Source of the DNA: a virus
DNA length: 39,540 nt
Virus record (IMG/VR): IMGVR_UViG_3300019124_000017
Coordinates: 1 to 39,540 of that record
Direction: 5' to 3' (one strand)
A model generated the notes under the pieces. That model had not been told where the DNA came from, made no database searches, and was given only the letters and a program-made list of their open reading frames with translations. The position numbers were made by a program, and so were the translations under genes. Shown here in pieces: positions 1-30,406 of this stretch (position 1 is its first letter; each line of letters begins with the position of its first letter).

Positions 1-127
1 TCGCCGCCGCTCCCTCAGTGCCCGAGCAGGCAGAGCAGCCGGCAGTAGCGGATGAGCGGGCTATGCTTTGCGCAAACTGCGGCAAGCACTTGGAGCAGGC
101 AGAGGGCTGCATCAGCGACTACCCAGA
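1..127. repeat. Terminal direct repeat, copy 1. Identical to 39414-39540, so this is a contig end overlap of a closed molecule.
   Basis: Both ends read base by base: tcgccgccgctccctcagtg...gcatcagcgactacccaga is present at both termini. Confidence 0.9.
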
Positions 128-782
128 AGAGGGCGAGTGGTTTTGCTCTCAGGCGTGCTACGACCAGCACTCGGATCTCGGCTGCCCTCATGAGAAGCAC
201 AGCGGTTACCGGCACCCTCACGAGGCAGAGCGCTTGATTGCGTGTGAAGCGGCACTGCGCTCGCTGGCTTGTTGGCTGGGAGTCGGCGGCTACAACGCAG
301 ACACGGTAGATGCCTCCACGTTCGAGGCCAAGATTCGTGATGGCGTTGAGCACCTGCTCGCCGCCGCCGCTCCCTCAGTGCCCGAGCAGGCAGAGCAGCC
401 GGCAGTGGTGGAAGGGCGGGCGGCCTACGCGCTGCGTCTGCTTGTTGCGGCCGGCCACATCACACAGGAGAGAGCCGACGAGTCGCTGGCGCTGGCCGAG
501 AAGTATGCCATCCCCACAGCACCCGCACAGCCGCCCTCGGCGGCTAGCTCCGGTGGTATGGGCGCTAGCTCCGGTGGTGCACCCGGCAACTCCGGTGGTA
601 TGGGGGCACAGCCGCCCTCGGCGCAGGGGCAAGAGGCGCTGGAAGAACTGCGGCGCGCGATCTGCGCCGTTGGCATCGTGGGCACCATTGACGGGCACGC
701 CGTGATCCGCCGAGAAAGCGTGATCGACCTGATCGACCGCCGGATCGCCGCCCTCTCTGGCGCACAAGGGGGTGGGGTGTGA
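1..782 (+). CDS. 3' part of the junction-spanning modular early protein. It holds a Cys-rich module, linker repeats and a Gly/Ser tandem.
   Basis: Tracked ORF 18..782 is open back to base 3 in the same frame. The stop TGA at 780-782 overlaps the GTG start of the next gene. Confidence 0.65.
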   Translation, partial: AAAPSVPEQAEQPAVADERAMLCANCGKHLEQAEGCISDYPEEGEWFCSQACYDQHSDLGCPHEKHSGYRHPHEAERLIACEAALRSLACWLGVGGYNADTVDASTFEAKIRDGVEHLLAAAAPSVPEQAEQPAVVEGRAAYALRLLVAAGHITQERADESLALAEKYAIPTAPAQPPSAASSGGMGASSGGAPGNSGGMGAQPPSAQGQEALEELRRAICAVGIVGTIDGHAVIRRESVIDLIDRRIAALSGAQGGGV

Positions 783-2091: not shown

Positions 2092-2414
2092 GCAGCACCA
2101 CACCACTGCCTGAGCCGTTCGGCTGGATCACCGACCAGGGCGGGCACGGCGGCACCTTCTTTCAGCGACACGAGCCTACCGGGCTGGCCGCCTTGACCGC
2201 TTCGACCATGCCGGTCTACAGCGCCTCACAGATCGCATCCCTACGGGAGAAGCTGGCAGCAGCCGAGGCCGATGCAAAGCGGCTGGATTGGCTGGAGAAG
2301 CAGTGCCGCGGCGCGTCCGACTCCGAGCGCTACTTGCCATTCCGCATCTACTGGGGTGACGGTCGCGGAATCCGCGCCGCCATAGACGCCCACCTTGAAC
2401 GGGGGGAGGGATGA
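2088..2414 (+). CDS. Hypothetical early protein.
   Basis: 108 aa. ATGA coupling at both ends. High GC3. Confidence 0.6.
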   Translation: MSSTTPLPEPFGWITDQGGHGGTFFQRHEPTGLAALTASTMPVYSASQIASLREKLAAAEADAKRLDWLEKQCRGASDSERYLPFRIYWGDGRGIRAAIDAHLERGEG

Positions 2415-2719
2415 TGCGACCCGGTGACGGCGGCGCACCGTGCCACCGCTGCGGCGCCGCCACCCGCGACGACGCCGACCGCTTCGACCTGTGCATGCCC
2501 GACCCGCACCTGCCGTGCTTGCTCTACAAGCCGGCGGCGCAGCTGGAGCCCTGCCCCTTCTGCGGCGCCGAGCCCATGCGCACCGTCGCGCCCGCGCCGG
2601 CCGGCATCGACGGCGCCCTGCCCACCCTTACGATCGAATGCGCGCAGTGCGGCATCCCCCACGTGACCGGCGACGACTTCGCCGCCGTGGCGGCCGCCTG
2701 GAACACCCGCACCCGCTGA
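2411..2719 (+). CDS. lar: Lar-family restriction-alleviation-like protein.
   Basis: 102 aa. C-terminal half reads CPFCG...TIECAQCG...AAWNTR, the hallmark layout of Lar-family zinc-ribbon proteins. Confidence 0.6.
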   Translation: MMRPGDGGAPCHRCGAATRDDADRFDLCMPDPHLPCLLYKPAAQLEPCPFCGAEPMRTVAPAPAGIDGALPTLTIECAQCGIPHVTGDDFAAVAAAWNTRTR

Positions 2720-2720
2720 C

Positions 2721-3788
2721 ATGCCCCGCAAGCCCCAGCAGCCCAACCAGCGCCCCCGCTTTCGCGTGCGCACCCGCCGCGGCGCGGCCGGCCAGGTCTA
2801 CACCTACTACTTCTGGGACGGCCGCACCCAGGGCCGCGGCGAGGTGCCGCTGGGCAGCGACTTCACGGCCGCGCTGGAGCGCTACGAGGAACTGGAGGGC
2901 CTGCGCTCGGCGCGCAAGGACAAGATCGCCGAGGCCTTCGACCGCTTCGAGCGCGAGGTGCTGACGCCCGAGCACTACCCCAGCGCCACCACCCGCCGCG
3001 ACTACCTGCTGTGCCTGACCAAGCTGCGGCCGGTGTTCGGCAACGCGGTGTGGGCCAGCGTCAAGACGCCACACCTGGCCGCCTACCGCGACAAGCGCAG
3101 CGCCAAGACGCGGGCCAACCGCGAGCTGGCCGTGCTGTCGATCGTGTGGGGGTGGGCGCGCGAATGGGGCCTCACGCAGCTGCCCTACCCGGGCTTTCGC
3201 ATGCGCAAGAACAAGGAAAGGGCGCGGCTGGTGCAGGTGAGCGACGAGGCATTCGAGGCGATCTACGCCGAGGCCGACCCCGTGCTGCGCCAGGCGCTGG
3301 ACACGATCACCGCCACCGGCCTGCGCATCACCGACGTGCTGCAGCTCACGCTGCCGCAGTTCAACGGCGGCCAGCTGCTGCGCGTCACGCCCAGCAAGAC
3401 GCAGCGCAAGGGCAAGACCATCGAGCTTGCGCTGAACGACCCTGAGCACCCCACCATCCTGGCCGACCTGTACGCGGCCCGCATGGCGCACCGCGGCGCG
3501 CTGCACATGCGCTGGCTGGCCGGCAGGGGCAATGAGACGATCACCTACCGGATGCTGGCCGATCGCTTCGGCGATGCGCGCGAGAAGGCCGCCAAGAAGG
3601 CCGCAGAATCGGGCCAGGATGCATTTTCAGCGCACGTCCGGGGGTTGATCCTCAGGGACATGCGAAAACACGCCGCAGACAAAGCGGAGAGCCTGCGCCA
3701 CGCCCAGGAACTGCTGCAGCACGACGACGTGCGCGTCACACGGCTGCACTACCGGGGCAAGGGCGAGCGGGTGAAGCCGTCGCGTTAG
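2721..3788 (+). CDS. int: Tyrosine recombinase, the phage integrase.
   Basis: 355 aa. Contains TGLRITDVLQL (box I Arg), LRDMRKHAA and LLQHDDVRVTRLHY (box II His/Tyr). It is the last gene of the + operon and lies next to the tRNA-derived attP. Confidence 0.85.
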   Translation: MPRKPQQPNQRPRFRVRTRRGAAGQVYTYYFWDGRTQGRGEVPLGSDFTAALERYEELEGLRSARKDKIAEAFDRFEREVLTPEHYPSATTRRDYLLCLTKLRPVFGNAVWASVKTPHLAAYRDKRSAKTRANRELAVLSIVWGWAREWGLTQLPYPGFRMRKNKERARLVQVSDEAFEAIYAEADPVLRQALDTITATGLRITDVLQLTLPQFNGGQLLRVTPSKTQRKGKTIELALNDPEHPTILADLYAARMAHRGALHMRWLAGRGNETITYRMLADRFGDAREKAAKKAAESGQDAFSAHVRGLILRDMRKHAADKAESLRHAQELLQHDDVRVTRLHYRGKGERVKPSR

Positions 3789-3806
3789 GAAAGCCGACTG
3801 GCAGCG

Positions 3807-4259
3807 CTAAAGCTGCACGCGCACGAGCGCTGGAGTATTGCTGTCGGTGTGCACGACCCCAATCCACAACAGGTTGCCTTTGGCGATCTTTTTCGCCTGG
3901 TCCTGCTCGACAACACCGGTCCAGCGTTGGCCGGCTGCAAGCTCGGCAGGGAGCGGTCCTGAAGGCTTGGGGACGAAGCCAAGCGAACTCGGGCGACGGC
4001 GGAAGAACCTCGCGAGCCGGGACGGGTACGCGTAGAGCGCGAGATGGGTGATCGTCGTCGAGCGGTCGCCGCGATTCATCACCTCGACAAAGACATGGCT
4101 GGTTGGGTCCACGCCTACACCTTCGATGTACTGCTGCATGCCCGTTACTGCGCGCACGTGCAGCCTGGCCCCGCTCGTTGCCCACTTGAACAAGTCCCAG
4201 ATGAGGACGAGGGTCGCTACTCCAGCTCCCCACCAAGCCGCCCAATCTGATGCGCTCAT
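3807..4259 (-). CDS. Cargo membrane protein of unknown function. The maximal ORF extends to 4325.
   Basis: I prefer the Met at 4259 (MSASDWAAWWGAGVATLVLIWDLF, one TM helix) because the TTGCGGAAA repeats at 4268-4300 lie in the longer extension. GC is visibly lower than in the flanks. Confidence 0.55.
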   Translation of the reverse strand: MSASDWAAWWGAGVATLVLIWDLFKWATSGARLHVRAVTGMQQYIEGVGVDPTSHVFVEVMNRGDRSTTITHLALYAYPSRLARFFRRRPSSLGFVPKPSGPLPAELAAGQRWTGVVEQDQAKKIAKGNLLWIGVVHTDSNTPALVRVQL

Positions 4260-4267
4260 AGCCCTCG

Positions 4268-4300
4268 TTGCGGAAAAACGCTTGCGGAAAATTGCGGAAA
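4268..4300 (+). repeat. Three direct copies of TTGCGGAAA, candidate integrase arm-type sites on the P arm.
   Basis: Copies at 4268-4276, 4282-4290 and 4292-4300, about 50 bp from the tRNA-derived core. Confidence 0.55.
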
Positions 4301-4347
4301 CAGCGGCGGCCTTGTTAGTGGGCACTATGCGCTAAGTCGTTGTCAGC

Positions 4348-4406
4348 TGGTGCCCGGGAGGGGGCTCGAACCCCTATGACCGTTTAAGGTCCGCGGATTT
4401 TAAGTC
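4348..4406 (-). other. attP core: the 3' 59 nt of a tRNA-Leu(UAA) gene, from the anticodon loop to CCA. It is not a complete tRNA.
   Basis: The reverse complement reads GACTTAAAATCCGCGGACCTTAAACGGTCATAGGGGTTCGAGCCCCCTCCCGGGCACCA. This gives a T arm AGGGG-TTCGAGC-CCCCT, a long variable arm and a loop CTTAAAA. No matching 5' acceptor strand (GCCCGGG), D arm or 5' anticodon-stem strand lies upstream. Confidence 0.75.
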
Positions 4407-4447
4407 TTGGCGCAACTCCAGCCGCATCAACCACTTAGGTCGTTTCC

Positions 4448-4509
4448 TTTCCGCATTCTGCCGGGCGGCCGGCGTGTATCGGCCCTGGGACAAAAAGGCG
4501 TTGCGGAAA
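4448..4509. repeat. Further arm-type site copies on the other side of the core, the P' arm.
   Basis: TTTCCGCAT at 4448-4456 is an inverted copy matching 8 of 9 positions. TTGCGGAAA at 4501-4509 is a direct, exact copy. Confidence 0.45.
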
Positions 4510-4542
4510 CGAACCGAGGGCCGGCTGCGCTATCCTGCACTG

Positions 4543-4758
4543 GTGAAACGTACAGCGTTTTATTTCTTCCGGTACCGCAGCCCGACCACCGGCCGGTGGG
4601 TGAAGTCGCGCCACCGGGCGAAGCTGGAGGACATCCCGGCTGGAGCGGAGCCGATCACCGACACGGTGGAATGGCGCGAGCTGCCGGCGACGCCTGAGGA
4701 GGCGCGGGCCTTGTGCACGGGCGCCTGGCAGCGCGGGAAGCACGAACCCCGAGGCTAA
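4543..4758 (+). CDS. Small basic hypothetical protein. The maximal ORF starts at 4474.
   Basis: GTG at 4543 (VKRTAFYFFRYRSPTTGRWVKSRHRAKLEDI...). Strong GC3 bias. The longer form would cover the arm-type repeat at 4501. Confidence 0.45.
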   Translation: MKRTAFYFFRYRSPTTGRWVKSRHRAKLEDIPAGAEPITDTVEWRELPATPEEARALCTGAWQRGKHEPRG

Positions 4759-4869
4759 TCTCAGCGGTATGGCCGCCCCACCCCAAAACGGGGGATGCCC
4801 CCTAGTTTGAAGACTGCCTCGGCACGGGCAATGCCGGCAGCATGCGGCCACAACCACAGGGAGATCCGC

Positions 4870-5463
4870 ATGCGTTCATTGCTCGCAGCCACGGCGCTGG
4901 CCGTTGCCACTTCTGCAGGCGCCTTTAGCCTCGATGGTGAGGGCGTCACTGTCACCATCCCCACCCACGTCATTCACGGCATCCACACCGTGGAAGGGGA
5001 GTTTGGGGAGCGCGTCACCATCGGCGACGGCATCGAGGCCCAGGGCATCGGTCATGGCGTCTTTGGCACCACGTGGAACCTATGGGTTGACGTGAACGGC
5101 GACACGGTGCGGGTCGGCTGGAACGACACCACTGGGCACGGGAACCTGTGGGGCGGGGGCACCCCCACGATGGGGGTTTACTTCCAGTTCGACGACCGGC
5201 AGCCGCTGCGGCTCGAAATGGAGTACGTCAGTTTTGAGCGCGGCACCATCATGGGGCCCGGCACGAACGTACCCGCGTTCATGTTTGGCGGACCACGGCG
5301 GCACGGCGGCACCAACTTCCTGGTGCGCTGGGACCGCATGCTGTCCGGCGAGGTCTACACGTTCCGGGTGCGCGAGGTGCCCGAGCCGGAAACCTACGCG
5401 CTCATGCTTGCGGGGCTCGCGGCACTGGCCGCGGTTGCGCGCCGACGGGCTACTCCTGCGTGA
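4870..5463 (+). CDS. Secreted PEP-CTERM sorting-domain protein, a phage cargo gene.
   Basis: AGGGAGA lies 7 nt upstream of the ATG at 4870. The signal peptide is MRSLLAATALAVATSAGA. The C-terminus VPEPETYALMLAGLAALAAVARRRATPA is PEP, then a TM helix, then an Arg cluster. Confidence 0.8.
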   Translation: MRSLLAATALAVATSAGAFSLDGEGVTVTIPTHVIHGIHTVEGEFGERVTIGDGIEAQGIGHGVFGTTWNLWVDVNGDTVRVGWNDTTGHGNLWGGGTPTMGVYFQFDDRQPLRLEMEYVSFERGTIMGPGTNVPAFMFGGPRRHGGTNFLVRWDRMLSGEVYTFRVREVPEPETYALMLAGLAALAAVARRRATPA

Positions 5464-5935
5464 TCGCGCGCACGTAGCCCTGCAGCTCGATCAGGCGCCC
5501 TCGGTCCTGGTCAGCTTCTCGCGCCAGGCCCTCAAGAGTTGCTGCACACGCCCCGAGTAGCTGCCGCTCGACGGCGCCTGCATCGACTCGGCACTCGGCG
5601 CCGGGAGCCTGGGCGGCTCGATCACGGTCGGCGAGGGCGCCGCGCAGCCGCTCAAGCTCATCACGAGCGCCCACAGCATCAGCGCGCGCGGCGCTGGCGA
5701 TCTTCCTTGCATGGTCTTGTGCCTCCTGCACGTTGGTGGCCCGGCGAGATTCCAGGCGCCGGGCTTCCTGGCTGGCTTGCAGCGCGTCAGCCAGGCGCTG
5801 GGCCTTCTCGGCATCCCACTCGGCCTGAACCCGGCCGGCGCCCACGCGCACGCCCAGGGCGAACAGGCCCAGCAGCACGGCCGCGACAAGCGCTGCCTTG
5901 GCGGCGCCGAGGTAGGGGCTGAGGGCGGCCAGCAT
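5450..5935 (-). CDS. i-spanin (Rz-like).
   Basis: 161 aa with an N-terminal TM followed by a charged coiled-coil. It lies immediately downstream of the endolysin (ATGA overlap) and contains an embedded lipoprotein ORF. Confidence 0.75.
   Translation of the reverse strand: MLAALSPYLGAAKAALVAAVLLGLFALGVRVGAGRVQAEWDAEKAQRLADALQASQEARRLESRRATNVQEAQDHARKIASAARADAVGARDELERLRGALADRDRAAQAPGAECRVDAGAVERQLLGACAATLEGLAREADQDRGRLIELQGYVRAITQE
5491..5712 (-). CDS. o-spanin (Rz1-like), fully embedded in the i-spanin gene in another frame.
   Basis: Reads MQGRSPAPRALMLWALVMSLSGC|AAPSPTVIEPPRLPAP, with a lipobox LSGC and a Pro-rich mature part. Confidence 0.7.
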   Translation of the reverse strand: MQGRSPAPRALMLWALVMSLSGCAAPSPTVIEPPRLPAPSAESMQAPSSGSYSGRVQQLLRAWREKLTRTEGA

Positions 5936-6552
5936 CAGCCGGCCACCAGCAGGCGGAACGCGCGGGCCGTGCGCTCCTGGCGGTCGGCCATGCCGTGGGT
6001 GCGGCCGTTGATGCGCTTGGTGATCTCCACCGCGCTGGAGGTATCGGCCAGCGCGTTACAGCCGCGGTCCTCCCAAAACCAGGCCGCGGCGCGGGCGCCG
6101 TGCTGGGGCAACTCCAGCAGCTCGGGGCAGTCGCGCAGCGGCAGGTTCAGGGCGATGCCGGCGCGGCGGTAGTTGTCGGCGCCGGTGATCTGCAGCGGGC
6201 CGCGGCCGCGGTAGCGCCATCCGTCGCCGCTTTCATAGGGCCCGTTGCCCATGCGGTTGGCATAGACCAGGTTGGCCAAGCGCTCGGGGGCGTGCGCGTA
6301 GTGGGCCGCGGCCTTGGCGTCAGGAAAGCGCGACGGCCACACTTCGCGCAGGCGCTGCAGCGAATAGTTCAGGTTCTCGGTGGTGCGGCTGAGCGAGCCG
6401 CTTTCGTGCCCCACCTGGCCCAGGAAGGCGGCGATGCGTGGGCGGGTGGTGATTTGCCGCTCGGTCATGGCCGACACAAACGGCTTGTGCCAGCGCTCGG
6501 CGAGATCGGCGGTGCAGCCGATGATGGCCGCGAACTGCTGCAGGGTGAACAT
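5935..6552 (-). CDS. Endolysin, glycoside hydrolase family 19 (chitinase-like).
   Basis: MFTLQQFAAIIGC...GQVGHESGSL...TENLNYS...YRGRGPLQITG. GGAGGA lies upstream of the ATG at 6552. The longer tracked ORF overlaps the holin and is rejected. Confidence 0.85.
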   Translation of the reverse strand: MFTLQQFAAIIGCTADLAERWHKPFVSAMTERQITTRPRIAAFLGQVGHESGSLSRTTENLNYSLQRLREVWPSRFPDAKAAAHYAHAPERLANLVYANRMGNGPYESGDGWRYRGRGPLQITGADNYRRAGIALNLPLRDCPELLELPQHGARAAAWFWEDRGCNALADTSSAVEITKRINGRTHGMADRQERTARAFRLLVAG

Positions 6553-6572: not shown

Positions 6573-6998
6573 TCAGGGTTTGGCGGGTGGCTGCAGGCGT
6601 GCGGCGAGGGCTTCCACCCAGCCCTCGCCGACACGAGACAGCAGGCGCGCGCCGGCATAGCCACCCAGCCACAGCGCAGCGCCCAGCAGCCACACGCCCC
6701 ATTCCTGCCAGGCGCCCACCGCGAAGGTGAGGAAGCCCACGCCGCTGGACACCACCACGTCCTTGGCCAGCTCCAGCCAGATCGGGAAGGGCTGCGGCGG
6801 CTCGGCCTTCACCGCCTCGAGCGCGCGCTCGGCGGTGCGGGTGAGGCCGCCCCACAGGCTGAGGGCCGCGCCGATGCCGATCTGCACCCACGGCAGGCCG
6901 GCCAGATCGGGCGGCACGCTGTCGGCCGCCATGGCGGTGGCCAGGGTGCCCAGGCCGATCAGCAGGCCCAGCAGGTTGCGAAGGGTTTCAAAGCGCAT
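6573..6998 (-). CDS. Putative holin, a multi-TM protein.
   Basis: 141 aa with several hydrophobic helices. It lies directly upstream of the endolysin. Confidence 0.6.
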   Translation of the reverse strand: MRFETLRNLLGLLIGLGTLATAMAADSVPPDLAGLPWVQIGIGAALSLWGGLTRTAERALEAVKAEPPQPFPIWLELAKDVVVSSGVGFLTFAVGAWQEWGVWLLGAALWLGGYAGARLLSRVGEGWVEALAARLQPPAKP

Positions 6999-7419
6999 GT
7001 GTAGGCCTCAAAGCGGCGGTCCAGGCGAACCAGGCGCACACGGCGCCGGTGGCTGCGTATTGCAGGATCAGCACGGCAACGCCGGGCAGCGCCGGCATGG
7101 CACCGGCCGCGGCGAAGGCCATCACCAAATAGACCGCGCCCAGCAGCGCGTAGCCCAGGTGCCGCCTACGACGCGCCCACAGCAATGCGAAGCGGTCGGG
7201 CAGCGCGTCGTTGATCAGCACGTCCAGCCAGCCGATCACCACCAGCAGCGTGAGGCCGGCCAGCACGGCCATCGCGGGCCGGCCGCCCTGCTCCACCACG
7301 TCGTTGACCAAGCTGGTCGGCGCCCACCAAGCCAATGCCACCGTGCTGCTGGCCTGCAGCAGCAACGCGAAGCGCGATACCAGGTGGAACCGCAGCAAGC
7401 GGTGGGGGCGGTCCATCAT
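6988..7419 (-). CDS. Membrane protein with about 4 TM helices. It may be a second holin or antiholin component.
   Basis: 143 aa and hydrophobic. It overlaps the holin start by 11 nt. GGAG lies upstream. Confidence 0.5.
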   Translation of the reverse strand: MMDRPHRLLRFHLVSRFALLLQASSTVALAWWAPTSLVNDVVEQGGRPAMAVLAGLTLLVVIGWLDVLINDALPDRFALLWARRRRHLGYALLGAVYLVMAFAAAGAMPALPGVAVLILQYAATGAVCAWFAWTAALRPTHAL

Positions 7420-7455
7420 GGCGTGAGGCTCCGGTGATGAGGGAAACGGATGGGG

Positions 7456-8109
7456 CTAAATGCCAGCCAGCGCGGCCAGCGTGACCTGCAGCACCGTCCG
7501 CAGGGTGGCCTCGTCGGCGGCGGCATCCACGGCGCGCTTGCCGCCGATGCGAAGCGCCTCGATCGCGGGGCTGAGTTGTTCGTCCCACACCTGCGCAATC
7601 GCCAGGATGGTCTGCGCGGCCTCCAGGGGCGCTACCCCGGTCGCCAGAGCCTCGGCCGCGATGTAGGCCGGCGGGGCGCCCTGCCCTTCAGCGGCCGCAA
7701 ACACCCTGGCCTGCTCGAGCTTGCGCAGGTAGACCGCCTGCTGCCCAGGAACCTCGGTGACGTAGCGCATGCGCGCCTCGCCGGCGGCGGCGTCGATCGC
7801 AGAGCGCGCATCGCGCTTGATCGCGGCGAGCGTGGGCACCGGCAGCCACTGGCCCGCATCGGTGTCCCACTGCCACGTGCGCCACTCGTCGGCCGGCGGC
7901 TCGGGTGGCTGCCAGGGCATGGCCACCGGCTGCTGGTGGCCAAAATCGTCGACGACCAGGTGCACGCACCAGCGGCGCGGGTCATGTTCCCCGGGGATGG
8001 CCGCACACCCTGGCGGCGTGTTGGCCTGCAGCCATTCGACCGGCCCCGCATAGGTGCGCCCCAGCAGACAGCCGGTGGCGGGATCGTAGAAGCTCCACAC
8101 GTCGCTCAC
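7456..8109 (-). CDS. Tail fibre assembly/chaperone-like protein (DUF4376-like C-terminus).
   Basis: The GTG at 8109 overlaps the stop of the J-like gene (GTGA). Begins VSDVWSFYDPATG and carries ...IKRDARSAIDAAAGEARMRYVTEVPGQQAVYLRKLEQA. The 586-aa tracked extension is out of frame with the J-like gene and is rejected. Confidence 0.5.
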   Translation of the reverse strand: MSDVWSFYDPATGCLLGRTYAGPVEWLQANTPPGCAAIPGEHDPRRWCVHLVVDDFGHQQPVAMPWQPPEPPADEWRTWQWDTDAGQWLPVPTLAAIKRDARSAIDAAAGEARMRYVTEVPGQQAVYLRKLEQARVFAAAEGQGAPPAYIAAEALATGVAPLEAAQTILAIAQVWDEQLSPAIEALRIGGKRAVDAAADEATLRTVLQVTLAALAGI

Positions 8110-11100
8110 CGCTTGATCTCCTCGATTCGCAGCTCGCCGTTGTCGATCGTGGTGGTGACGTTGGGGGCCAGCTTTTGCGCTCGCCAGTTGATCGTGTAGC
8201 TTTGCCCGGCGGTGACCGCAAAGCGGCGCGTGAGGGACACGGTGACTCGCGCGGTCTTGTTGAGGCCGATCTGCTGCTCCATCGCCCAATTGCGCGACGT
8301 GCCGATCAGTGCCGTGCCGCCGTTGTCCAACCCGGTGGACAGCCCTGCGTAGTCGTCGCTGCCGCTGGTGTTGGATGCCGGCGTGATCATGGTGGCCGAG
8401 CCGTTGGCGGTGATCAGCACATCCCCAGTGATGCTGGCGGTGAAGGTCAGCGATGCCACGATCGTGGTGGATCCGCCATACAAACCGCCGGAGCCGGTCT
8501 GCCCGGTGATCGTGACCGCGCTGCTGAAGTTGGACACGTGCACCGCGGTTGCGGCGTTGGCGGCAATCTGTGAGGTGGTGACCGAAACGCCGGAGATCGC
8601 TGACCACACGTTGACGTTGGCCGCGGGTATGCCGTTCACGGTGCCGGTGACGTCGCCACCGAAGGCCACGCTGCTGGCCGGCTGGTAGGGGTTCTCGCCG
8701 GCGAGGCTGGGCTTCGTCCAGCTGCTGTAGATCACGCCTGCAGCGTTGATGTCCGGGTCCACCACCCGATAGGCGCGCACCGCCCAGGTGTAGTAGTGCG
8801 TGGGGTTCAGGCCCAGGGCGATGAATGCGCGCTTGTTGGCAGGCACCACCACCACTGTTTCCGCCGCGGGTGATGTGCCTGGCGTGTAGGCGCTGCTGCT
8901 GGTGCTTGCATAGAGCATGACTTCGAAGCCGTCGATCTGGCTTTCCGTGCCGCTCCACGCCCATTCGAAACTGACGTCGGCGCTGCCGTTGGTGTTGATC
9001 GCGTGATCGACGGCATCGCCGTTGGTGACGATGGTGGGCGCAGGGATGGCGGTGGCCAGCCGGTCGTTGCGGGCGTCGAAGTTGACCGAGGCCGCGTCGC
9101 GCAGGTTGTTTGCCGTGAAGGTGAGCGCCACGCTGGCCGAGCTGGCGCTCTCGTTGCCGCTGGTGTCGCGGTGGCGCGCCTGCACGGTGTAGCTGCCAGC
9201 GGCCGGCATCGGCCACAGGTAGGTGTTGCCGCGGCCGCGATAGATGCGGGTGGCGGTGCTCCAGGTGGCGCCCACACGCAGCTCGGTCTCGGCATAGTCG
9301 AGCTCGGTGTTGGGCGTCCAGCTGAACAGCACGCCGCCCACCTGTGCGGTGCCGTTGAAGCTGGCCACGTTGGCCGGCAGCGCCGTTTTGCCCACCACGC
9401 GATGCGAGGCCTGCGCGGACCAGCGGCCAGCCACCAGCGCATTGGCAGCGCGGGCGCGCACCAGGTACACCGCACCGTCCTGCACGTCGGGGATATAGGC
9501 CTGCGTCTCGTAGCCGGGTACGCGCAAGCTGGACCAGGGCGCCGCGGCCGCGTTGGCGTGCTTGTATTGCACCTCGATGTGGCCATTGGCGACCACCGCA
9601 CGATCGGCGATTGCCGGCCAGCTGACCAGGATGCGCGAGGCCACAGTGCCATCGGCCTGCCGCAGCAGCTGGGCCGTGCCGCTGCTGAGGGTCAGGCTGG
9701 CAATGTCTGCCACCGTGGTGGGGCTGGGCAGCGAGGTGTTCGGTGTGATATCGACCGATGGGAAACCGGTGGCCGGGTCATAGATGGCCGCCGCGGTCTC
9801 GCGCAGCGTGAGCACCACCCCACCGGTCTGACTGAACCGCCAGTCGATCACCTGCATGGTCTTGGCGACCCAGCCGTAACGCTCCAGCGTGACCGTGCAC
9901 ACGTCGAACAGCTCGGCACCGAAGGCGCGCATGTTGCACGGGATGACTGCGGTCAACCCGGAATGCGCCTCACGGATTCGCACACCGCAGATGTGCTGGG
10001 CCTGTATGTCGTCGGTGACGGCGTGCAGCGTGACGTCCTGCGGCCGCTCGATGCCGTCCAGCGCGATGTAGGTGGAGGCACGTACCTCGGCGATGGGCGT
10101 GGGCACATAACCGGCGCTGGCCAGCGCGATGCTCGGGCGCATGACGTTGACGTCGTCCTCGGCCGGCAGGTCGGGCACCACGGAAATGCCCTCGGCACCC
10201 GAAAGCCAGTCCTCGGTGATGTGGAACGCAGGCGCGCTGTAGCCGGTGGCGAACCGCAACCGGCCGCCGGACCAACCGAAACGGCCCGCCATGGCCTCCA
10301 CGATTTGCGCCAGCGTGGCCTCCGGCGACTGCTCCGGGTTGCACACGATGCCGGCGCGGTAGGTCTTTTGCGACACGACGCCGACCACGTTGCCGTTCGC
10401 GTCGGTGCGGGTGAAGTTCTGGACCACGTCGCAAGCGTTCGCCGACGCGATGACCGAGGCGGTGTCGATCACGTCGGCAGGCAGTCCGCCGCCAAAGGTA
10501 TAGCGGGCCCAGTCGTATGCGATCAGCGCAGGGTTGTCGCTCCACGCCGTGGTGTTGTTGCGCAGGTCCAGGATCTTGGCGCCACGGAAGTCCACCGAGA
10601 CGTTGGGCACGCCGGTGGGGAACACATCGGCGTCGTACTCCAGCTGCACCTCGAGGCACGCGAAGCCCTGGAACAGGTCGGTGGTGTCGTTGATCAGCGC
10701 CGGGAACTTTGCTTTCAGCGACGCGACCAGGCCCGCGTTGTTGTTGCCCAGGTATGGCGTGATGCGCACGCGCGGCTGCACCAGGTCGTACTGGTAGGAG
10801 ATGGTGACCGTGTCTCCCGTCATCCCCGCGGTGTTGTAACTGACCTGTGTGCTGCTGGGCGTCGTGAACGGCACCGGGTTCGAGTAATCGACCCCGCCCG
10901 CCACCACTGCGACGGAGCCGGGCACAAAGGGGTGCGGCAGCGTCTCTGTTGCGGCCCCCATCGCCTTGGTGATGTGGGCCGTTTCGCGCGTGACCCTGGC
11001 CCATGGCGCGGTGGTGACGTAGCCACTGCCGTCGAGGGTGACCGGCGTATCGTTGAGGTAGATCTGCTCGATCCCGTCGATCTCGTGCCCGGCGAGCGCG

Positions 11101-18643: not shown

Positions 18644-19171
18644 CTACCTTGCACGGCGCCGGGGCGCGGCTTGTTGGCTGCGCGCGCCCATGGCGGGGGT
18701 TGTTCTGACAGTGACGGCCTGCTGCGGCCGCACGGACACCACGGCGCCGGGGACGAAGCCCGCACCGGCCTGCGCACGGGCGAGCAGGCGCACCCGCAGC
18801 GACGGCACACCAAACGCAGAGGCCGAGAGCACAGCGGCAGGAGCCACCGGCACCCCCTGCAGCCCGACGACCAGCGGCGCGCCACACGCCGACACAGCGG
18901 AGATGGCGGGCGCCTGCACTTGCGCCAGCTGCAGACGGACGATGGACGGCCCACCGACCAGCGCCGTCGAGCCCAGCGATCCGACCTGAAGGGCCGCGAC
19001 GCTGGTGCGCAGGATTGCCGGCGCCCCGAACGCCGCCGACGACGACAGGCCCGCGGGCGAGGCCTGTGCACGCCAGGCGACGGCGGGCGACCCCACCGCC
19101 GAGGCCGCCGGAACGCCCTGCGGGTAGACCTCGGCCGTGAGCGCCGATTGCAGGAGAAGCAGCAGCATCAC
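18644..19171 (-). CDS. Ala/Ser/Pro-rich repeat protein with about 6 degenerate units of the type S.SAFG.P.L.
   Basis: 175 aa. The start overlaps the upstream stop (GTG at 19171 or ATG at 19168). It is the only operon-strand ORF in this interval. Confidence 0.5.
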   Translation of the reverse strand: MMLLLLLQSALTAEVYPQGVPAASAVGSPAVAWRAQASPAGLSSSAAFGAPAILRTSVAALQVGSLGSTALVGGPSIVRLQLAQVQAPAISAVSACGAPLVVGLQGVPVAPAAVLSASAFGVPSLRVRLLARAQAGAGFVPGAVVSVRPQQAVTVRTTPAMGARSQQAAPRRRAR

Positions 19172-21069
19172 GCGAAGAAGAAGGCGCCGCTGACGTCGTT
19201 GGCGGCCAGGCCGGTGCTGGTGTTGTCGGTCAGGCCCTTGGCCGACGTGACGCTGTAGGTCATCGCCGTGGCGAAACCGATGCCGCCGGGAAGGTTGACG
19301 TCGCTGCGCCCGCCTGCGGGAATGTCGATCGTGAAGCTGGCCGAAGTCGTCCCCAGCGTGGGCGCGGTGGCGTTGAACACCTTCACGCTGCGAACACCGC
19401 TGGAGCTGTTCTGCAGTTGCCAGCCGATCAAGCGGCCCGCGCTGGCTTTGATGGTCGCAGCGGCGGGGGTGGCGGGCGATTGCACCGCCACAAACGAGGC
19501 GGCGCCCGTGGCGTTGGCACGGTATTGCACGCCCACATCGCCAATCGCGTTGGTGCTGGCTGCCGCCGTTACGGTGCCGGAGACGGGCTGCGTGCCCACT
19601 GACGGCGCGATCGGCTGATCGGCGCCCGACAGGTTGATCGCCGTCGTGCCGCCCGTGGTGGCCGTGGTCAACCGCAGCCTGAAGTACCTGGCCGCCACGT
19701 TGACCTGCCGCAGGATCGAGCCCGCGTTGAACGTCGTGCTGGACGCGCCGGCCTGGTCATACAGCGTCGCGGTGACCACGTTGGCGAAGTCGGGCGTGCT
19801 TGACCATTGCGCGGTCACCACCCCGCTCGTGCCCATGCTCACGCAATGGATCATCAGCGCTCGCAGCTGCGAGCAGTCGACCACGATCAGGTCGGTGTTG
19901 ATCGCAATGGCACCGGCCTGGGAGTAGGTGACGGTGGTCAACGGCGGGACGGCGGCGACGATGCGCTCGGTTTCCGAGAAGATCCCCACCTCGACCTTGT
20001 TGTGGTTCTTGGTGGTGATGTAGTCCACCGTCACGGTGGTGGAGCTGGCCGCGGCGCCGGTGTTCTCGCAGTCAATGGCCGAGGCCATGATGTCGTAAGC
20101 CGCCGGGATGACCCGGGTGTGCTCGGCGACCTGCACGCCGTTGACGAAGAACTTCACCGCCTCGGTCATCTGCTCGATTCGATACTCGAGCATGTTCGTC
20201 GTCGCCATCGGCGCCGGCAGCGTGACGGTGTAGCTTTCAACTTCGCCGCCGGCCGGCCCGGTCGTCGGGTTGCGCCCGGTCTCGGTGATCACGGTGGTGG
20301 CGTTGGTGCCGTCCAGCCGGAACCTGCAGTACCAACGCGGGTTGGCGCTGCGCTTCTCACGCAGGCCAATGTTGAAGCGCTGGTTGGCGATGCGCTGGCT
20401 GACCTGCACACGCTGCCGGCTGATCAGCGGCGAATAGTCCACCTCTCGCTCGAGCAGCGTCAACGAACCGGAGGTGGTGCCCGTGGTGATCACCGCATTG
20501 CCGCCGCTGACGGTGATGGAACCGCCGGAGCCGGTCTGCGGGCGCACCTGCGCGCGGCTGGCCGCGCCGGTGCCAGGCGTGCCGCGGTAGGGCTCGGTCA
20601 GGTAGATGGTCTCGTCGTCACCGATGCCGGCAATCTGCGTCCATGCCGATTCCGGGTCAGCGTCCAGCTTGAAGTAGTCCCGCAGGCTGGCAGCGCTGGC
20701 TGCAAAGCCGGTACCTGTGACCACATCGTCGGCCACCGTGCAGGTGCCGATCGGCACCGCCAACGAGGCGTTGGCGAAGTTAACCCGGTAGGTGCCTTCG
20801 TCCGTCAACACCGCGCCACGCACGGACAACGCGCCGCCCGGGTCCGTGCTCAACTCGGCGCGGTCAGCGCCGGGAGGCGCCCCATAGCTGGGCCAGTAGG
20901 CCACCTGCGTGGCCTTGAGCTTGAACGGGTACGGCGTTTCTTCCGTCACCTCCGTGGCCACGCCCTCCTCTCCATAAGCGAGCTTCGCCCGCTGAAAAAG
21001 GCTGCCCCCGACGTTGTCGCCAGCCACCGCGGTGCCGGTGGCTGGAAGTGCTGGGTTGGTGTAGGCCAT
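19168..21069 (-). CDS. Large unknown virion-type protein, beta-rich, with jelly-roll-like C-terminal domains.
   Basis: 633 aa, operon-coupled, with Thr/Ser/Gly/Val-rich composition typical of fibre or receptor-binding proteins. Confidence 0.6.
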   Translation of the reverse strand: MAYTNPALPATGTAVAGDNVGGSLFQRAKLAYGEEGVATEVTEETPYPFKLKATQVAYWPSYGAPPGADRAELSTDPGGALSVRGAVLTDEGTYRVNFANASLAVPIGTCTVADDVVTGTGFAASAASLRDYFKLDADPESAWTQIAGIGDDETIYLTEPYRGTPGTGAASRAQVRPQTGSGGSITVSGGNAVITTGTTSGSLTLLEREVDYSPLISRQRVQVSQRIANQRFNIGLREKRSANPRWYCRFRLDGTNATTVITETGRNPTTGPAGGEVESYTVTLPAPMATTNMLEYRIEQMTEAVKFFVNGVQVAEHTRVIPAAYDIMASAIDCENTGAAASSTTVTVDYITTKNHNKVEVGIFSETERIVAAVPPLTTVTYSQAGAIAINTDLIVVDCSQLRALMIHCVSMGTSGVVTAQWSSTPDFANVVTATLYDQAGASSTTFNAGSILRQVNVAARYFRLRLTTATTGGTTAINLSGADQPIAPSVGTQPVSGTVTAAASTNAIGDVGVQYRANATGAASFVAVQSPATPAAATIKASAGRLIGWQLQNSSSGVRSVKVFNATAPTLGTTSASFTIDIPAGGRSDVNLPGGIGFATAMTYSVTSAKGLTDNTSTGLAANDVSGAFFFA

Positions 21070-21500: not shown

Positions 21501-23330
21501 TTAGGCGGTCTGCAGCACCTGCTGCGCTTGCGCGTTGCGGTACTCCGAATCGTTGGCGTAGGACTTCCAGCCGGTGTTCACGGCGCAGCTGAGCGACCCC
21601 ACCGGCACCTTGAGTCGACTGCTGCCGTTGAACGTCGCGTTCTGCATGCCGCCGATCTCGGTGTTGTTGATGAGGCGCACGGCGTTCGCGCAGCTGTTGC
21701 GCGTGTCGATCTGCACCGCCACACCCACCTCGCCGGGCGACGACCCGCGACGGAACAGGCAGTTCGCCACCGTCACCGATTGGTTGGCCGTGGGGACCGC
21801 GTCGGTAGTGACCGCAACCGCCGGCCCCATTGGCGCGTCGAACTCACAGTCGACCACCGCCAGGTGGCCGAACTGCACGTTTGCGCCGCTGTTGTAAATC
21901 GCAAGGCACTGCGCGTCCCACCATTTGCCGTCAGCGAGCGCGTTGCCGTAGTTGCGCGTCTGTCCGCCGAAGCGGCTGGTGTAGCTCGTCACCAAGCCGC
22001 TGTTGTTCGCCGCATTGCGGGCGGCCGGGATCATCGGCAGGCGGTTGAAACTCTTGTAATTGCGCACAAACCCGGAGCCATGGATTTGATCGGGGGCGCG
22101 CATGTTGTAGACCCGGCCGCCGATATCCAGGCCGGTCAGGCTGGTACCCGTGCCGTTGAACGCGAACGCGCGGGAATACTGCTGCCCAGCGCCGTCGAAC
22201 AGGAACTCAGGCTCGACGGTCAGCCCGTGGATGTACCCCGCGCCGCCGACGCCGCGGGCGATCGCCGAGTGGTTGGCGCCACGGATGTGAGCCTGCAGGC
22301 CGCTGCTGCTCTTGGCAGCGAAGCGGATGTTGCGCACGCATGCGTTGGTGCCGAACTGCACCAGGTCGTTGAACCCGCCGTTGTGGTGCCCGCTCTCGAA
22401 CGGGTAGAACGGCCGCTCCTTGATGAGCGCGTCGATGCGGGGCGCCAGCGTGCAGTTCTGCAGTTCGGCGGTCGTGTTGAGCGGGCCCTCGTTGACGGCG
22501 ACCGTCGGGCGATACGGCGAGGTCGCCAGAATCTGCGGCTCGAATCGCCAATTGCTGCCACCGTTCAAGCGGAAGGCGTACTGCCCGCCGCCCAGGCATT
22601 TGATGGTGTCGTCCAGCGTCCAGTTGTCCAGGCCCTGAATGCGCATGAAGTTGTGGAAGCCCTCTTGCGTCAACACAGCGATGCCGCCCCACACCGTCGC
22701 CGGGTTGCCCTTCGGGCTGTAGAGGTACAGCGTGCGCATGGCGGCGAACGACGTCGGCGTCGTGTCGCTCGTGCCCCATGTGTTGCCGCTGTCGACCTGC
22801 GTCCAGGCGTGCGATTCGTTGTCGCCCAGCGTGGCGTAGCTGGCCGCCTCGAACAGTTCGTTGTCCGGGTCGAGCACAGCCAGCCGCTTGTCGGTCAACG
22901 CCGTGGCGCACCGCCACACGCGCACTGCTTTGTTCGACAGGCCCGCGGTCACGAACGTCGTGCTGGTGCGCCAGATTCCGCCGCCCAGGTCCGTGAAGTC
23001 GGCCGTGCTGGTCAGCGTGCGAATGTCGCTGAAATGCCAGTTCGCGGTGGGGTCGTACGCGGTGATCAGGATGCCGTTGGCGCACTGCACGCTGATCGTC
23101 GCGTTGGCTGCGACGTTGTTGTTCGTGAAGTTGCCGAAGTAGCCAAACGCGCCGTTCGAGCTGAAGTCGAACGCATCCACGAAGATGCGCACCGTGTCGT
23201 TGATGCCCGGCGGGTTCTCCGACGCGATCAGCTGGTTCATCTTCGGCCAGGTCTGCACGCGGTTCGCGTAGCTCTGCCCGTTGTTGCTGTTGTTGCCGGT
23301 CGGGCCGATGTAGTAGTCCTTGAACGGCAT
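21501..23330 (-). CDS. Right-handed beta-helix (pectate-lyase-fold) protein, a putative polysaccharide depolymerase.
   Basis: 609 aa from MPFKDYYIGPTGNNSNNGQSYANR. It has many Asn/Gly-rich coils (NNTEIGG, VANCLF, VVDCEF). The ATG at 23330 lies 1 nt after the upstream stop. Confidence 0.6.
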   Translation of the reverse strand: MPFKDYYIGPTGNNSNNGQSYANRVQTWPKMNQLIASENPPGINDTVRIFVDAFDFSSNGAFGYFGNFTNNNVAANATISVQCANGILITAYDPTANWHFSDIRTLTSTADFTDLGGGIWRTSTTFVTAGLSNKAVRVWRCATALTDKRLAVLDPDNELFEAASYATLGDNESHAWTQVDSGNTWGTSDTTPTSFAAMRTLYLYSPKGNPATVWGGIAVLTQEGFHNFMRIQGLDNWTLDDTIKCLGGGQYAFRLNGGSNWRFEPQILATSPYRPTVAVNEGPLNTTAELQNCTLAPRIDALIKERPFYPFESGHHNGGFNDLVQFGTNACVRNIRFAAKSSSGLQAHIRGANHSAIARGVGGAGYIHGLTVEPEFLFDGAGQQYSRAFAFNGTGTSLTGLDIGGRVYNMRAPDQIHGSGFVRNYKSFNRLPMIPAARNAANNSGLVTSYTSRFGGQTRNYGNALADGKWWDAQCLAIYNSGANVQFGHLAVVDCEFDAPMGPAVAVTTDAVPTANQSVTVANCLFRRGSSPGEVGVAVQIDTRNSCANAVRLINNTEIGGMQNATFNGSSRLKVPVGSLSCAVNTGWKSYANDSEYRNAQAQQVLQTA

Positions 23331-23331
23331 G

Positions 23332-23778
23332 TCAGGCTCCCACCGCCACCGGCAGCGAGCCGGTGCCATTGAAGGCCGTGGTGCGCAGCGCCATCGCCGT
23401 CACCCCTGCGGGCTTGCGGAACCGGCGGCCGCTGCCGTCCGGGTAGAAGAAGAAGCCGAACACCTGGCCGTTGGAGGCGTCCTCCACCTGCACCGCGGCC
23501 TGCGCCACGCTGCCAGTGGGCAAGCCGATGCTCACCTGCAGCACACCCCCATCCGGCACGGCGGCCAGCGAGATCGGGGCGCCCAGGCCCGTGCCGCTGA
23601 TGGTTTGCGTGGCCAGCACGATGGTGGCGGTACCGCCTGCCAGTGCCGATTGGCCATCCATGCCAGCGCTGTAGTAACGCGCCAGGCCCAGCCCCACGAG
23701 GCGGGCTTCTTCGGCCGTGTCGAGCGTGTGGACGGAGTGGAACTCCAAGCCACCCCAGGAGGTGAGCATCTGGATCAT
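23332..23778 (-). CDS. Unknown protein in the head module.
   Basis: 148 aa, beta-rich, operon strand. Confidence 0.55.
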   Translation of the reverse strand: MIQMLTSWGGLEFHSVHTLDTAEEARLVGLGLARYYSAGMDGQSALAGGTATIVLATQTISGTGLGAPISLAAVPDGGVLQVSIGLPTGSVAQAAVQVEDASNGQVFGFFFYPDGSGRRFRKPAGVTAMALRTTAFNGTGSLPVAVGA

Positions 23779-29968: not shown

Positions 29969-30406
29969 TCAGCTTTCGAGCACGCCGAGCCGCAAGCGCT
30001 GCGCCGGATGCCCTGCCAACGCCTCCACACGCTCACGCTCGCGCTGCGCCTGGTCACGCTTGTCCCGGAAGTGCGCCGCTAGCAGGCGGTGTGCGTGGTC
30101 GATCCGTGCGTGCACGGTGCTCACACTGCAGCCCAGCAGCCGCGCCTGGTTCGGTATGTCGGTGTGCTTGCCGCAGTAGTGCTCGTGCACGGTCTCCTGC
30201 AGGTGCTTCGGCAGCTGCTTGATGGCGGCATCTGTGTCGGCCGCCTCGCAGTCGCTCACCGGGATGGCCGCCTCACGGTAGCCGCTGCCGGTGGGCGTGT
30301 CCAGGCTGCTCCAGTTCACCGCAGCATGCCCGAGCCGCCCGCCTGGCCGCATCTTCCACAGCGCCCAATTCAGCAGGCGCTGCTCCACGTAGTCGCTCTT
30401 TGCCAT
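29969..30406 (-). CDS. Putative late-gene regulator (antiterminator Q-like or sigma region-4-like HTH).
   Basis: 145 aa. It is the last gene before the packaging genes. C-terminal HTH-like IPNQARLLGCSVSTVHARIDHAHRLL. ATGA overlap with dnaB. Confidence 0.4.
   Translation of the reverse strand: MAKSDYVEQRLLNWALWKMRPGGRLGHAAVNWSSLDTPTGSGYREAAIPVSDCEAADTDAAIKQLPKHLQETVHEHYCGKHTDIPNQARLLGCSVSTVHARIDHAHRLLAAHFRDKRDQAQRERERVEALAGHPAQRLRLGVLES

Follow-up and report, generated by a model that had tools for sequence, protein, structure and literature searches.

We analysed a stretch of 39,540 nucleotides (nt) of viral DNA, positions 1 to 39,540 of the IMG/VR record IMGVR_UViG_3300019124_000017, which is referred to below as the window. 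It carries a plus-strand gene that encodes a protein with a predicted N-terminal signal peptide and a C-terminal PEP-CTERM sorting domain, located between a probable phage attachment site (attP) and the lysis gene Rz (Table 1). Two independent public gene calls give the same 197-amino acid (aa) product, in agreement with the open reading frame (ORF) that a first-pass annotation, made from the letters alone, had placed at 4870–5463. The gene starts at ATG 4870, preceded by the Shine-Dalgarno sequence AGGGAG at 4858–4863, and closes with the stop codon at 5461–5463. A longer ORF opens at ATG 4795; the start was set at 4870 because the longer product places 25 non-signal residues before the hydrophobic core, and because ATG 4795 also precedes the promoter-like element described below. 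The gene and Rz are convergent and their 3′ ends overlap by 14 nt, tail to tail. The GC content at third codon positions (GC3) of the gene is 0.81, versus about 0.88 in the phage core genes.

The N-terminus, MRSLLAATALAVATSAGA, contains one basic residue and a 15-residue hydrophobic core (Kyte-Doolittle segment 3–17), followed by A-G-A at positions −3 to −1, and has neither a cysteine nor a lipobox. On this heuristic reading, which bears out the Sec signal peptide of the first-pass annotation, the peptide is predicted to be of the signal-peptidase-I type. The cleavage context A(F/Y)(S/T)LDG is also kept in P0016, the sole homologue. The C-terminus, VPEPETYALMLAGLAALAAVARRR, scores 31.8 bits with PF07589 (gathering threshold 20.7) and 22.6 bits with TIGR02595 (cut-off 16), and the protein terminates in VPEPETYALMLAGLAALAAVARRRATPA, which comprises Pro-Glu-Pro, a transmembrane (TM) helix and a basic cluster at the extreme C-terminus. 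By hydropathy, the C-terminal hydrophobic segment spans residues 175–189 and is followed by RRR; this helix and the signal peptide are the only hydrophobic segments of the protein. With the profile match, the motif, the helix, the basic cluster and the signal peptide all in place, we assign it to the PEP-CTERM domain proteins. The first-pass annotation had named failure of the profile as the result that would speak against the tag, and no such failure occurred. The named PEP-CTERM subfamilies in NCBIfam (FxDxF, PepA and others) gave tail-only matches, all under their cut-offs. The best of these is the FxDxF family NF038126 (42 bits versus a cut-off of 50, covering profile positions 136–165, the tail, only), and the flocculation protein PepA family NF033554 reaches 29.1 bits versus 80, again in the tail only.

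The passenger between the two signals is rich in Gly, Thr and Val (18.4%, 10.9% and 10.2%) and is predicted to be all-β. Its earlier description as Gly/Thr/His-rich is right for glycine and threonine, leaves out valine and overstates histidine (4.1%). No family match was found for the passenger in Pfam, NCBIfam, PHROGs or PADLOC, and a search of 5.8 billion clustered proteins returned the PEP-CTERM protein itself and tail-level matches only. When the passenger alone was scanned with HMMER against 1.84 billion representative proteins, one true relative was recovered, P0016 (196 aa, 38% identity), in which signal peptide, passenger and PEP-CTERM domain are laid out alike; a repeat protein that also matched was judged spurious. 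P0016 sits on a single 100.5-kb contig and may be chromosomal. A metagenome scan gave tail-level matches only, and the contigs of P0016 and of the window were not among them. Two proteins with similar tails, P0032 and P0020, were rejected as candidates, both being located in ordinary chromosomal loci. Among GenBank phages, tblastn found no match to the window protein or to the PEP-CTERM protein of the viral contig L004, a search in which the BLAST low-complexity filter may hide tail-only matches. The single-sequence AlphaFold2 model of the passenger is poor (predicted local distance difference test score, pLDDT, 43). A two-sequence model is all-β with a pLDDT of 61 and a predicted template modelling score of 0.62, in one of five models, and is thus of modest confidence. 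Foldseek comparison of the passenger model with the PDB and BFVD retrieved nothing at E≤0.001.

On the minus strand, a 3′ tRNA fragment fills part of the 214 nt that separate orf150 from orf94. Its anticodon loop reads CUUAAAA, its variable arm GACC-UUAAAC-GGUC and its T arm AGGGG-UUCGAGC-CCCCU (AGGGGUUCGAGCCCCCU); the acceptor end is CCCGGGCACCA, in which the strand CCCGGGC is followed by the discriminator A and CCA; the 3′ end reads ...CUUAAAAUCCGCGGACCUUAAACGGUCAUAGGGGUUCGAGCCCCCUCCCGGGCACCA. From the anticodon loop, the fragment may be assigned to tRNA-Leu(UAA). The Rfam tRNA clan matches at 4356–4432 on the minus strand (20 bits, E 0.076). ARAGORN at default settings found no intact tRNA in the window, and at 70% thresholds it returned a tRNA-like structure at 4348–4422 on the minus strand. 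The fragment was unmatched in plasmids, in IMG/VR and in the related loci compared; attP-like tRNA fragments were not found in the related loci L067 and L071, nor were intact tRNAs in 12 related loci. When a phage carries the 3′ part of a tRNA beside an integrase gene, this typically marks an attP by which the tRNA is reconstituted upon integration, and the fragment is the probable attP core. The PEP-CTERM gene begins at a distance of about 470 nt, separated from the fragment by one small ORF (orf94), and would therefore be the second gene from one prophage end. The earlier placement of the gene next to attP is accordingly right to within this distance and this one ORF. The order in the prophage would be attL, orf94, the PEP-CTERM gene, Rz ... 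early genes, int, orf150, attR.

The 111-nt gap upstream of the gene contains a sigma-54-type −24/−12 promoter-like element, GGCACGggcaaTGC, 35 nt before the ATG, which has the GG-N10-GC spacing and agrees with 9 of the 12 positions of TGGCACG-N4-TTGCW. GGCAC-N6-TGC occurs a single time on both strands of the window, versus 6.3 expected, and the chance of finding it in the 111-nt gap in this orientation is about 0.009. The full consensus at up to three mismatches occurs 53 times in the window versus 96 expected. Spurious sigma-54-like sites thus appear to be avoided, which suits the phage of a host with active sigma-54. Counterpart elements precede the PEP-CTERM genes of two related phages, L071 (GGCACGgctgaTGC at −48) and L073 (GGCATcccggaTGC at −54); the flanking hexamers are kept and the spacer varies. 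On the 3′ side of the element, the window, L071 and L073 share a second conserved block, ACAACCACnGGGAGA, which comprises a leader and the Shine-Dalgarno sequence (ACAACCACAGGGAG in the window). A search of IMG/VR with the leader motif CACAACCACNGGGAGA returned 41 matches, all attributable to chance and none before a PEP-CTERM ORF. When 150-nt upstream regions of viral PEP-CTERM genes were surveyed, GGCA[CT]-N6-TGC was present in 7 of 39 non-redundant regions, versus 0.44 expected from the background of all collected loci. Neither a sigma-70-like promoter nor an intrinsic terminator was found around the gene (3700–5700).

A sigma-54 motif precedes 99 of 167 proteobacterial PEP-CTERM genes and is tied to PrsK/PrsR/PrsT (Haft 2006, PMC1569441). 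GGCACGggcaaTGC has the GG at −24 and GC at −12, at least 23 nt before the start, that define motif 2 of that study. Motif 1, a presumed PrsR site of 17 nt that ends in TTTACA, lies 32–92 nt upstream of motif 2 (PMC1569441). The start site of pepA in Aquincola tertiaricarbonis lies at a TGGCAC/CTGCTT promoter and depends on RpoN1 (PMC9850573). One of the collected loci, L018, has the classical Haft layout at about 7100–7314 (...TTTACG, about 64 nt, TGGCACGCTTCCTGCT, about 52 nt, ATG); its PEP-CTERM gene is on a predicted prophage, perhaps in the host flank, and makes the locus a suitable positive control for motif searches.

A pattern scan of IMG/VR for tails of this kind gave 34 viral contigs. 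Two of these loci, L028 and L035, have tail modules 36–54% identical to that of the window phage, and in both the PEP-CTERM ORF is convergent with the lysis cassette. L035 is a prophage of an isolate genome; its last gene encodes the PEP-CTERM protein and abuts host PAAR and amidase genes, which places the prophage boundary within about 170 nt of the start of the PEP-CTERM gene. This prophage-end position matches the one inferred for the window gene. The genes for the PAAR-domain protein and the peptidoglycan amidase (L035 1–1850) resemble a type VI secretion effector pair.

A survey led by the endolysin gave the contexts of six distinct relatives at 52–66% identity. A PEP-CTERM ORF stands beside the lysis genes in three of them, namely L067/L068 (sipho-like), L071 (with a myo-like baseplate) and L073 (podo-like), and is lacking there in L069/L070, L072 and L074; the slot is empty or otherwise filled in L069, L072 and L074. 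By comparison, none of 80 distant IMG/VR loci with GH19 endolysins at 42–54% identity (GC 35–70%), scanned within 5 kb, has such an ORF. Endolysin homologues at 55–67% identity are all metagenome proteins. The slot proteins of L028, L035, L067/L068, L071 and L073 all pass PF07589 and TIGR02595; these phages have a GC content of 64–68% and are sipho-, myo- or podo-like. The passengers of the window, L028, L035, L067, L071 and L073 are mutually unrelated. The exchange is seen most clearly against L071, in which the flanks are homologous to those of the window (orf94 55%, Rz 50% protein identity): at the DNA level, orf94 is 55–67% and Rz 50–80% identical, while identity within the body of the PEP-CTERM ORF stays at background level. 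In the window, L028, L035 and L071 the gene and the late operon converge, whereas in L067 and L073 the gene is co-directional with the lysis genes.

Tandem PEP-CTERM pairs were also observed on viral contigs of about 40 kb (L004, at 7455–8733, L003, L005–L011, L014, L015, L025, L029 and L030). The first gene of the pair encodes a protein beginning VTVGFENEFSGG, and the second a full FxDxF member (76 bits versus the cut-off of 50). In L004 the pair is placed between a DNA polymerase/primase/helicase block and the structural genes, and the phages of this type are probably virulent because they bring these replication genes of their own. In view of the slot ORFs and the tandem pairs, PEP-CTERM genes are recurrent in some high-GC phage groups and not a one-off. 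The first-pass annotation had called the arrangement unusual; no paper was found that describes phage-encoded PEP-CTERM proteins, but the recurrence in relatives and other viral contigs qualifies the word.

The window as a whole is a complete, circular, temperate siphophage. An exact overlap joins its two ends, a 621-aa gene runs across the contig junction, and the whole circle is reproduced, in a different rotation, in a second public assembly (an ENA copy). The junction-spanning gene contains four 60-nt repeats (2–61, 362–421, 39112–39171 and 39208–39267) that encode PSVPEQAEQPAV-like segments. The minus strand encodes the large terminase, portal, major head, major tail, tape measure and distal tail proteins, as well as a 1,125-aa central fibre, a holin, a GH19 endolysin and an Rz-like spanin; the Lar-like gene and the tyrosine integrase gene are on the plus strand. 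The PEP-CTERM gene is thus phage-encoded, as had been claimed, by the evidence of the 127-nt overlap, the junction gene and the head, tail, lysis and integrase genes. Among GenBank phages there is no DNA-level match to the window. Another run yielded a 100% identical assembly of the region 2388–5704 (3.3 kb, Lar to Rz), which makes a chimera unlikely.

Table 1. Features of the window around the PEP-CTERM gene and at the ends of the assembly.
Feature	Position	Strand	Remarks
Terminal overlap	1–127 = 39414–39540		Exact, 127 nt; circular assembly of ~39,413 bp
Gene across the contig junction	38330–39540 joined to 1–782	+	621 aa
Lar-like restriction-alleviation gene	2411–2719	+	PF14354; directly upstream of the integrase gene, single base between
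Tyrosine integrase	2721–3788	+	phrog_1, E 4e-22; PF00589 sub-threshold
orf150	3807–4259	−	Hydrophobic N-terminus; between int and attP; GC3 0.75; without family match
Probable attP core, 3′ tRNA fragment	4348–4404	−	57 nt; tRNA-Leu(UAA)-like, class II
orf94	4474–4758	+	Small basic protein; directly upstream of the PEP-CTERM gene, same direction
Sigma-54-type −24/−12 promoter-like element	4821–4834	+	GGCACGggcaaTGC
Conserved leader and Shine-Dalgarno sequence	4850–4863	+	ACAACCACAGGGAG; common to the window, L071 and L073
PEP-CTERM protein gene	4870–5463	+	197 aa plus stop
Predicted signal peptide	4870–4923	+	aa 1–18, MRSLLAATALAVATSAGA; cleavage predicted after AGA, before FS
Passenger	4924–5376	+	aa 19–169, about 150 aa
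PEP-CTERM sorting domain	5377–5448	+	aa 170–193; VPEP motif, TM helix, RRR
Rz-like i-spanin (DUF2514)	5450–5935	−	PF10721, 38.8 bits; phrog_312
Rz1-type outer-membrane lipoprotein ORF	5491–5712	−	+1 frame within the Rz-like gene; lipobox LSGC; proline-rich
GH19 endolysin	5935–6552	−	phrog_181, E 4.5e-80; PF00182
Holin	6573–6998	−	phrog_785; PF16083
DnaB-type helicase	30406–31752	−	

Among the neighbours, orf94 has a homologue directly upstream of the PEP-CTERM gene of L071 (L071 7831–8076, minus strand) at 49–55% identity, and the differences between the two lie mostly at third codon positions. Its match to Arm-DNA-bind_1, the arm-binding domain of lambda Int, is sub-threshold (E 0.089); it has no PDB, PHROG or PADLOC match and no relatives in IMG/VR. 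The protein carries a motif VKRTxFYFFR...GRxxxSRxR. A role as a recombination directionality factor, or in regulating the neighbouring gene, is conceivable. Downstream, the spanin pair is complete because the Rz1-type lipoprotein ORF is embedded in Rz, and this ORF rules out the PEP-CTERM protein as a replacement o-spanin. No ORF of the window has five or more TM segments by hydropathy, so that the phage brings no exosortase of its own. The first-pass annotation had also listed a putative polysaccharide depolymerase on this phage, a claim that found no counterpart: no ORF matched one in sequence searches of Pfam, PHROGs and the PDB. Two large minus-strand ORFs, at 19168–21069 (633 aa) and 21501–23369 (622 aa), lie between the genes for the major head protein and the head-tail connector. 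They have high GC3 and no Pfam, PHROG or PDB match, and neither is shown to be a depolymerase.

The host is probably a member of the Burkholderiales that resembles the Sphaerotilaceae. A scan of 185,579 species genomes by fibre alignment matched six distant prophages. The tail module has its nearest relative in a prophage of Roseateles cavernae (Burkholderiales, Sphaerotilaceae), followed by one of Pigmentiphaga, and a tail-level match is annotated as from an uncultured Roseateles. Aquincola, of the same family as R. cavernae, possesses a functional PEP-CTERM, RpoN and floc system, and the PEP-CTERM/exosortase system is also present in Rubrivivax and Leptothrix (PMC9850573). The exosortase-bearing Gram-negative host that had been predicted is consistent with the 68% GC of the window, with the R. 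cavernae prophage and with the lack of an exosortase gene in the phage, although these do not prove it.

We favour the reading, with a probability of about 0.6, that the gene is a moron whose product is sorted to the surface, processed by the exosortase of the host and controlled by a sigma-54 activator. It builds on the observed gene, tag, phage, position, recurrence and conserved promoter-like block. As expected of a moron, the gene occupies a place between Rz and the attP/int region, is not needed to complete the lysis cassette and varies among relatives in its presence; it is convergent with Rz, is preceded by the conserved promoter-like block and deviates in GC3. Because slot, tag and, in part, promoter are kept while the passenger is swapped, selection appears to act on the delivery of some protein by this route.

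The regulator, every step after translation and the benefit are what we infer, with steps modelled on the known PEP-CTERM/exosortase systems (Haft 2006, PMC1569441; Aquincola pepA, PMC9850573). Transcription would start from the sigma-54-type −24/−12 promoter and would need a host enhancer-binding activator; the proteobacterial PEP-CTERM regulon uses PrsK/PrsR (Haft 2006, PMC1569441). The gene would then track the exopolysaccharide or floc programme of the host and not the convergent late cascade of the phage. The product would be exported by Sec and trimmed by signal peptidase I after Ala18, and the C-terminal helix and RRR would anchor it in the inner membrane with VPEP at the periplasmic face. 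The host exosortase would cut at VPEP and send the β-rich passenger of about 150 aa towards the cell surface or the exopolysaccharide matrix. There the passenger may alter a surface property useful to the phage or the lysogen, with adsorption of other phages, aggregation and floc behaviour as candidates. The structural core of the earlier proposal, i.e. a Sec export signal, a profile-passing tag, a temperate phage and nearness to attP, has thus held, whereas the lysogenic conversion that would remodel the cell surface is a part that we can only infer.

Several observations weigh against this reading. The passenger has no recognisable fold or family, and nothing ties it to a specific activity. 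The host assignment is only probable, and an exosortase and PrsK/PrsR in that host are presumed. With regard to the promoter, matches to the −24/−12 consensus at three mismatches are common in GC-rich DNA, and the element has three mismatches to the 12-position consensus. Motif 1 of Haft, with the TTTACA end expected about 63 nt upstream, was not found in 4610–4820. The seven positive upstream regions are not independent, as they reduce to about three groups of homologues, and in L005, L006 and L008 the site lies within the upstream ORF. Two bacterial PEP-CTERM genes with similar tails have no sigma-54 element. The element is partly palindromic (GGCA...TGCC), with a perfect GCATCC-C-GGATGC in L073, and could therefore instead be an operator for a dimeric regulator. 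Finally, expression in lysogeny is not the sole possibility, because the genes of L067 and L073 are co-directional with the lysis genes and the L004 pair is carried by a phage with its own DNA polymerase.

The last point leads to the alternative that survives best, in which the protein is no lysogenic-conversion factor. It would instead be made during infection, by read-through or as a late product, and would aid the escape and spread of progeny through the exopolysaccharide or floc matrix, or would occupy the exosortase pathway. The constant place beside the lysis cassette agrees with such a role, as do the orientation in L067 and L073 and the PEP-CTERM pair that the probably virulent L004-type phages carry between replication and structural genes. 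However, the gene runs against the late operon in the window, L028, L035 and L071, it has its own conserved promoter-like element and leader, and the Rz/Rz1 spanin pair is complete without it. We therefore consider a lytic accessory function unlikely.

Slightly less likely still is a membrane anchor that acts independently of any exosortase, the C-terminal helix serving to hold a periplasmic factor for superinfection exclusion or for blocking DNA injection. A signal peptide, a C-terminal TM helix and an RRR stop-transfer sequence would suffice for an anchored periplasmic topology, and exclusion factors are frequent among the small membrane proteins encoded near att sites. The complete VPEP motif is nevertheless kept in every phage copy and in P0016 despite the unrelated passengers, which would be needless in a simple anchor, and PADLOC gives no match.

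Illegitimate recombination near att could also have captured a host PEP-CTERM gene that has no role for the phage. The gene adjoins attP, where imprecise excision captures host DNA; its GC3 is below that of the core genes, similar tails occur in ordinary chromosomal loci, and P0016, on its 100-kb contig, is maybe chromosomal. Against a neutral hitch-hiker, the same slot independently holds a PEP-CTERM gene in no fewer than five further phage lineages, which cover three morphotypes, and one sipho-type and one myo-type phage share a conserved block of orf94, promoter and leader. Two datasets give the same intact ORF, and the contrast between 0 of 80 distant and 3 of 6 close relatives does not suit a chance capture, which makes this origin improbable. 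An assembly artefact, with a piece of host DNA fused to a phage contig, is very improbable even though the sequence comes from metagenome assemblies only, given the 14-nt overlap of the gene with Rz, the identical 2388–5704 region in another run and the whole circle, in other rotation, in the second assembly.

The moron reading has a close parallel in lambda, in which bor follows directly downstream of Rz/Rz1 in the opposite orientation, is transcribed from a promoter of its own and is expressed in lysogens. Bor is a small envelope protein that is placed via a lipobox and Lol and confers serum resistance; bor and lom are lysogenic-conversion morons of lambdoid phages. The window gene matches bor in position and logic, in a slot beside Rz. 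In contrast to Bor, its product uses the PEP-CTERM/exosortase route and not a lipobox, and its candidate promoter is of the sigma-54 type and would need a host activator. SasX, an LPXTG surface protein on a phiSPbeta-like prophage of Staphylococcus aureus, is likewise a prophage-supplied substrate for a C-terminal sorting transpeptidase of the host. There the sorting is by a Gram-positive sortase A to the cell wall, whereas here it would be by a Gram-negative exosortase, of which the chemistry and acceptor are unproven.

The bacterial PEP-CTERM substrates, e.g. PepA of Zoogloea resiniphila and Aquincola tertiaricarbonis, share the signal peptide, a passenger of about 150–250 aa and the VPEP/TM/basic tail, and many of the proteobacterial genes are, like the window gene, single genes with an upstream sigma-54-type −24/−12 element. 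The window gene differs in being phage-borne, in a passenger unrelated to PepA and to every named subfamily, and in a short upstream gap (111 nt) with no recognisable motif 1. It resembles the FxDxF family NF038126 through the tail only and is not a member, while L004 and its relatives carry a true member. Our literature search on PEP-CTERM or exosortase with phages or prophages found no description of phage-encoded PEP-CTERM proteins, apart from a note on Dehalococcoides: the IME1 elements carry a PEP-CTERM-domain protein, HOG10, on a virus-like mobile element (bioRxiv 10.64898/2026.09.15.751708). That element is filamentous or budding-virus-like, belongs to another host phylum and offers no lysis-cassette setting; exosortases and regulation are not topics of the paper. 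What is new here is a lysogenic-conversion-type moron with an exosortase sorting tag and, probably, a sigma-54 promoter.

A sigma-54-type promoter would put a prophage gene under host signal transduction and not under the phage repressor, which is unusual for phage accessory genes. Nearly twenty years after their prediction, the roles of PEP-CTERM proteins and their handling by exosortases are largely unproven, and the few experiments made so far connect PEP-CTERM proteins of activated-sludge bacteria with floc formation. A phage whose one small substrate is dispensable lends itself to such studies, since the lysogen and the cured strain differ by one defined PEP-CTERM protein, and would let cleavage, destination and phenotype be followed cleanly.

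More tentatively, phages of high-GC, floc- or biofilm-forming betaproteobacteria may carry an exchangeable display cassette, placed beside the lysis genes and consisting of a sigma-54 promoter that depends on a host activator, a signal peptide, a freely replaced passenger and a PEP-CTERM tag. Such a cassette, which we put forward as a speculative extension, would edit the matrix or surface proteins through the host exosortase and a PrsK/PrsR-type regulon only while the host builds its matrix. If so, the benefit could be the blocking of rival phages, the marking of kin or a change in aggregation; this would be the first virus found to exploit exosortase sorting, and its gene would be among the few phage accessory genes wired to sigma-54. 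The unrelated passengers in the same slot suggest an influence of phages on the proteins that floc-forming Burkholderiales have in their matrix and on their surface, and such an influence bears on sludge settling, biofilm ecology and phage resistance.

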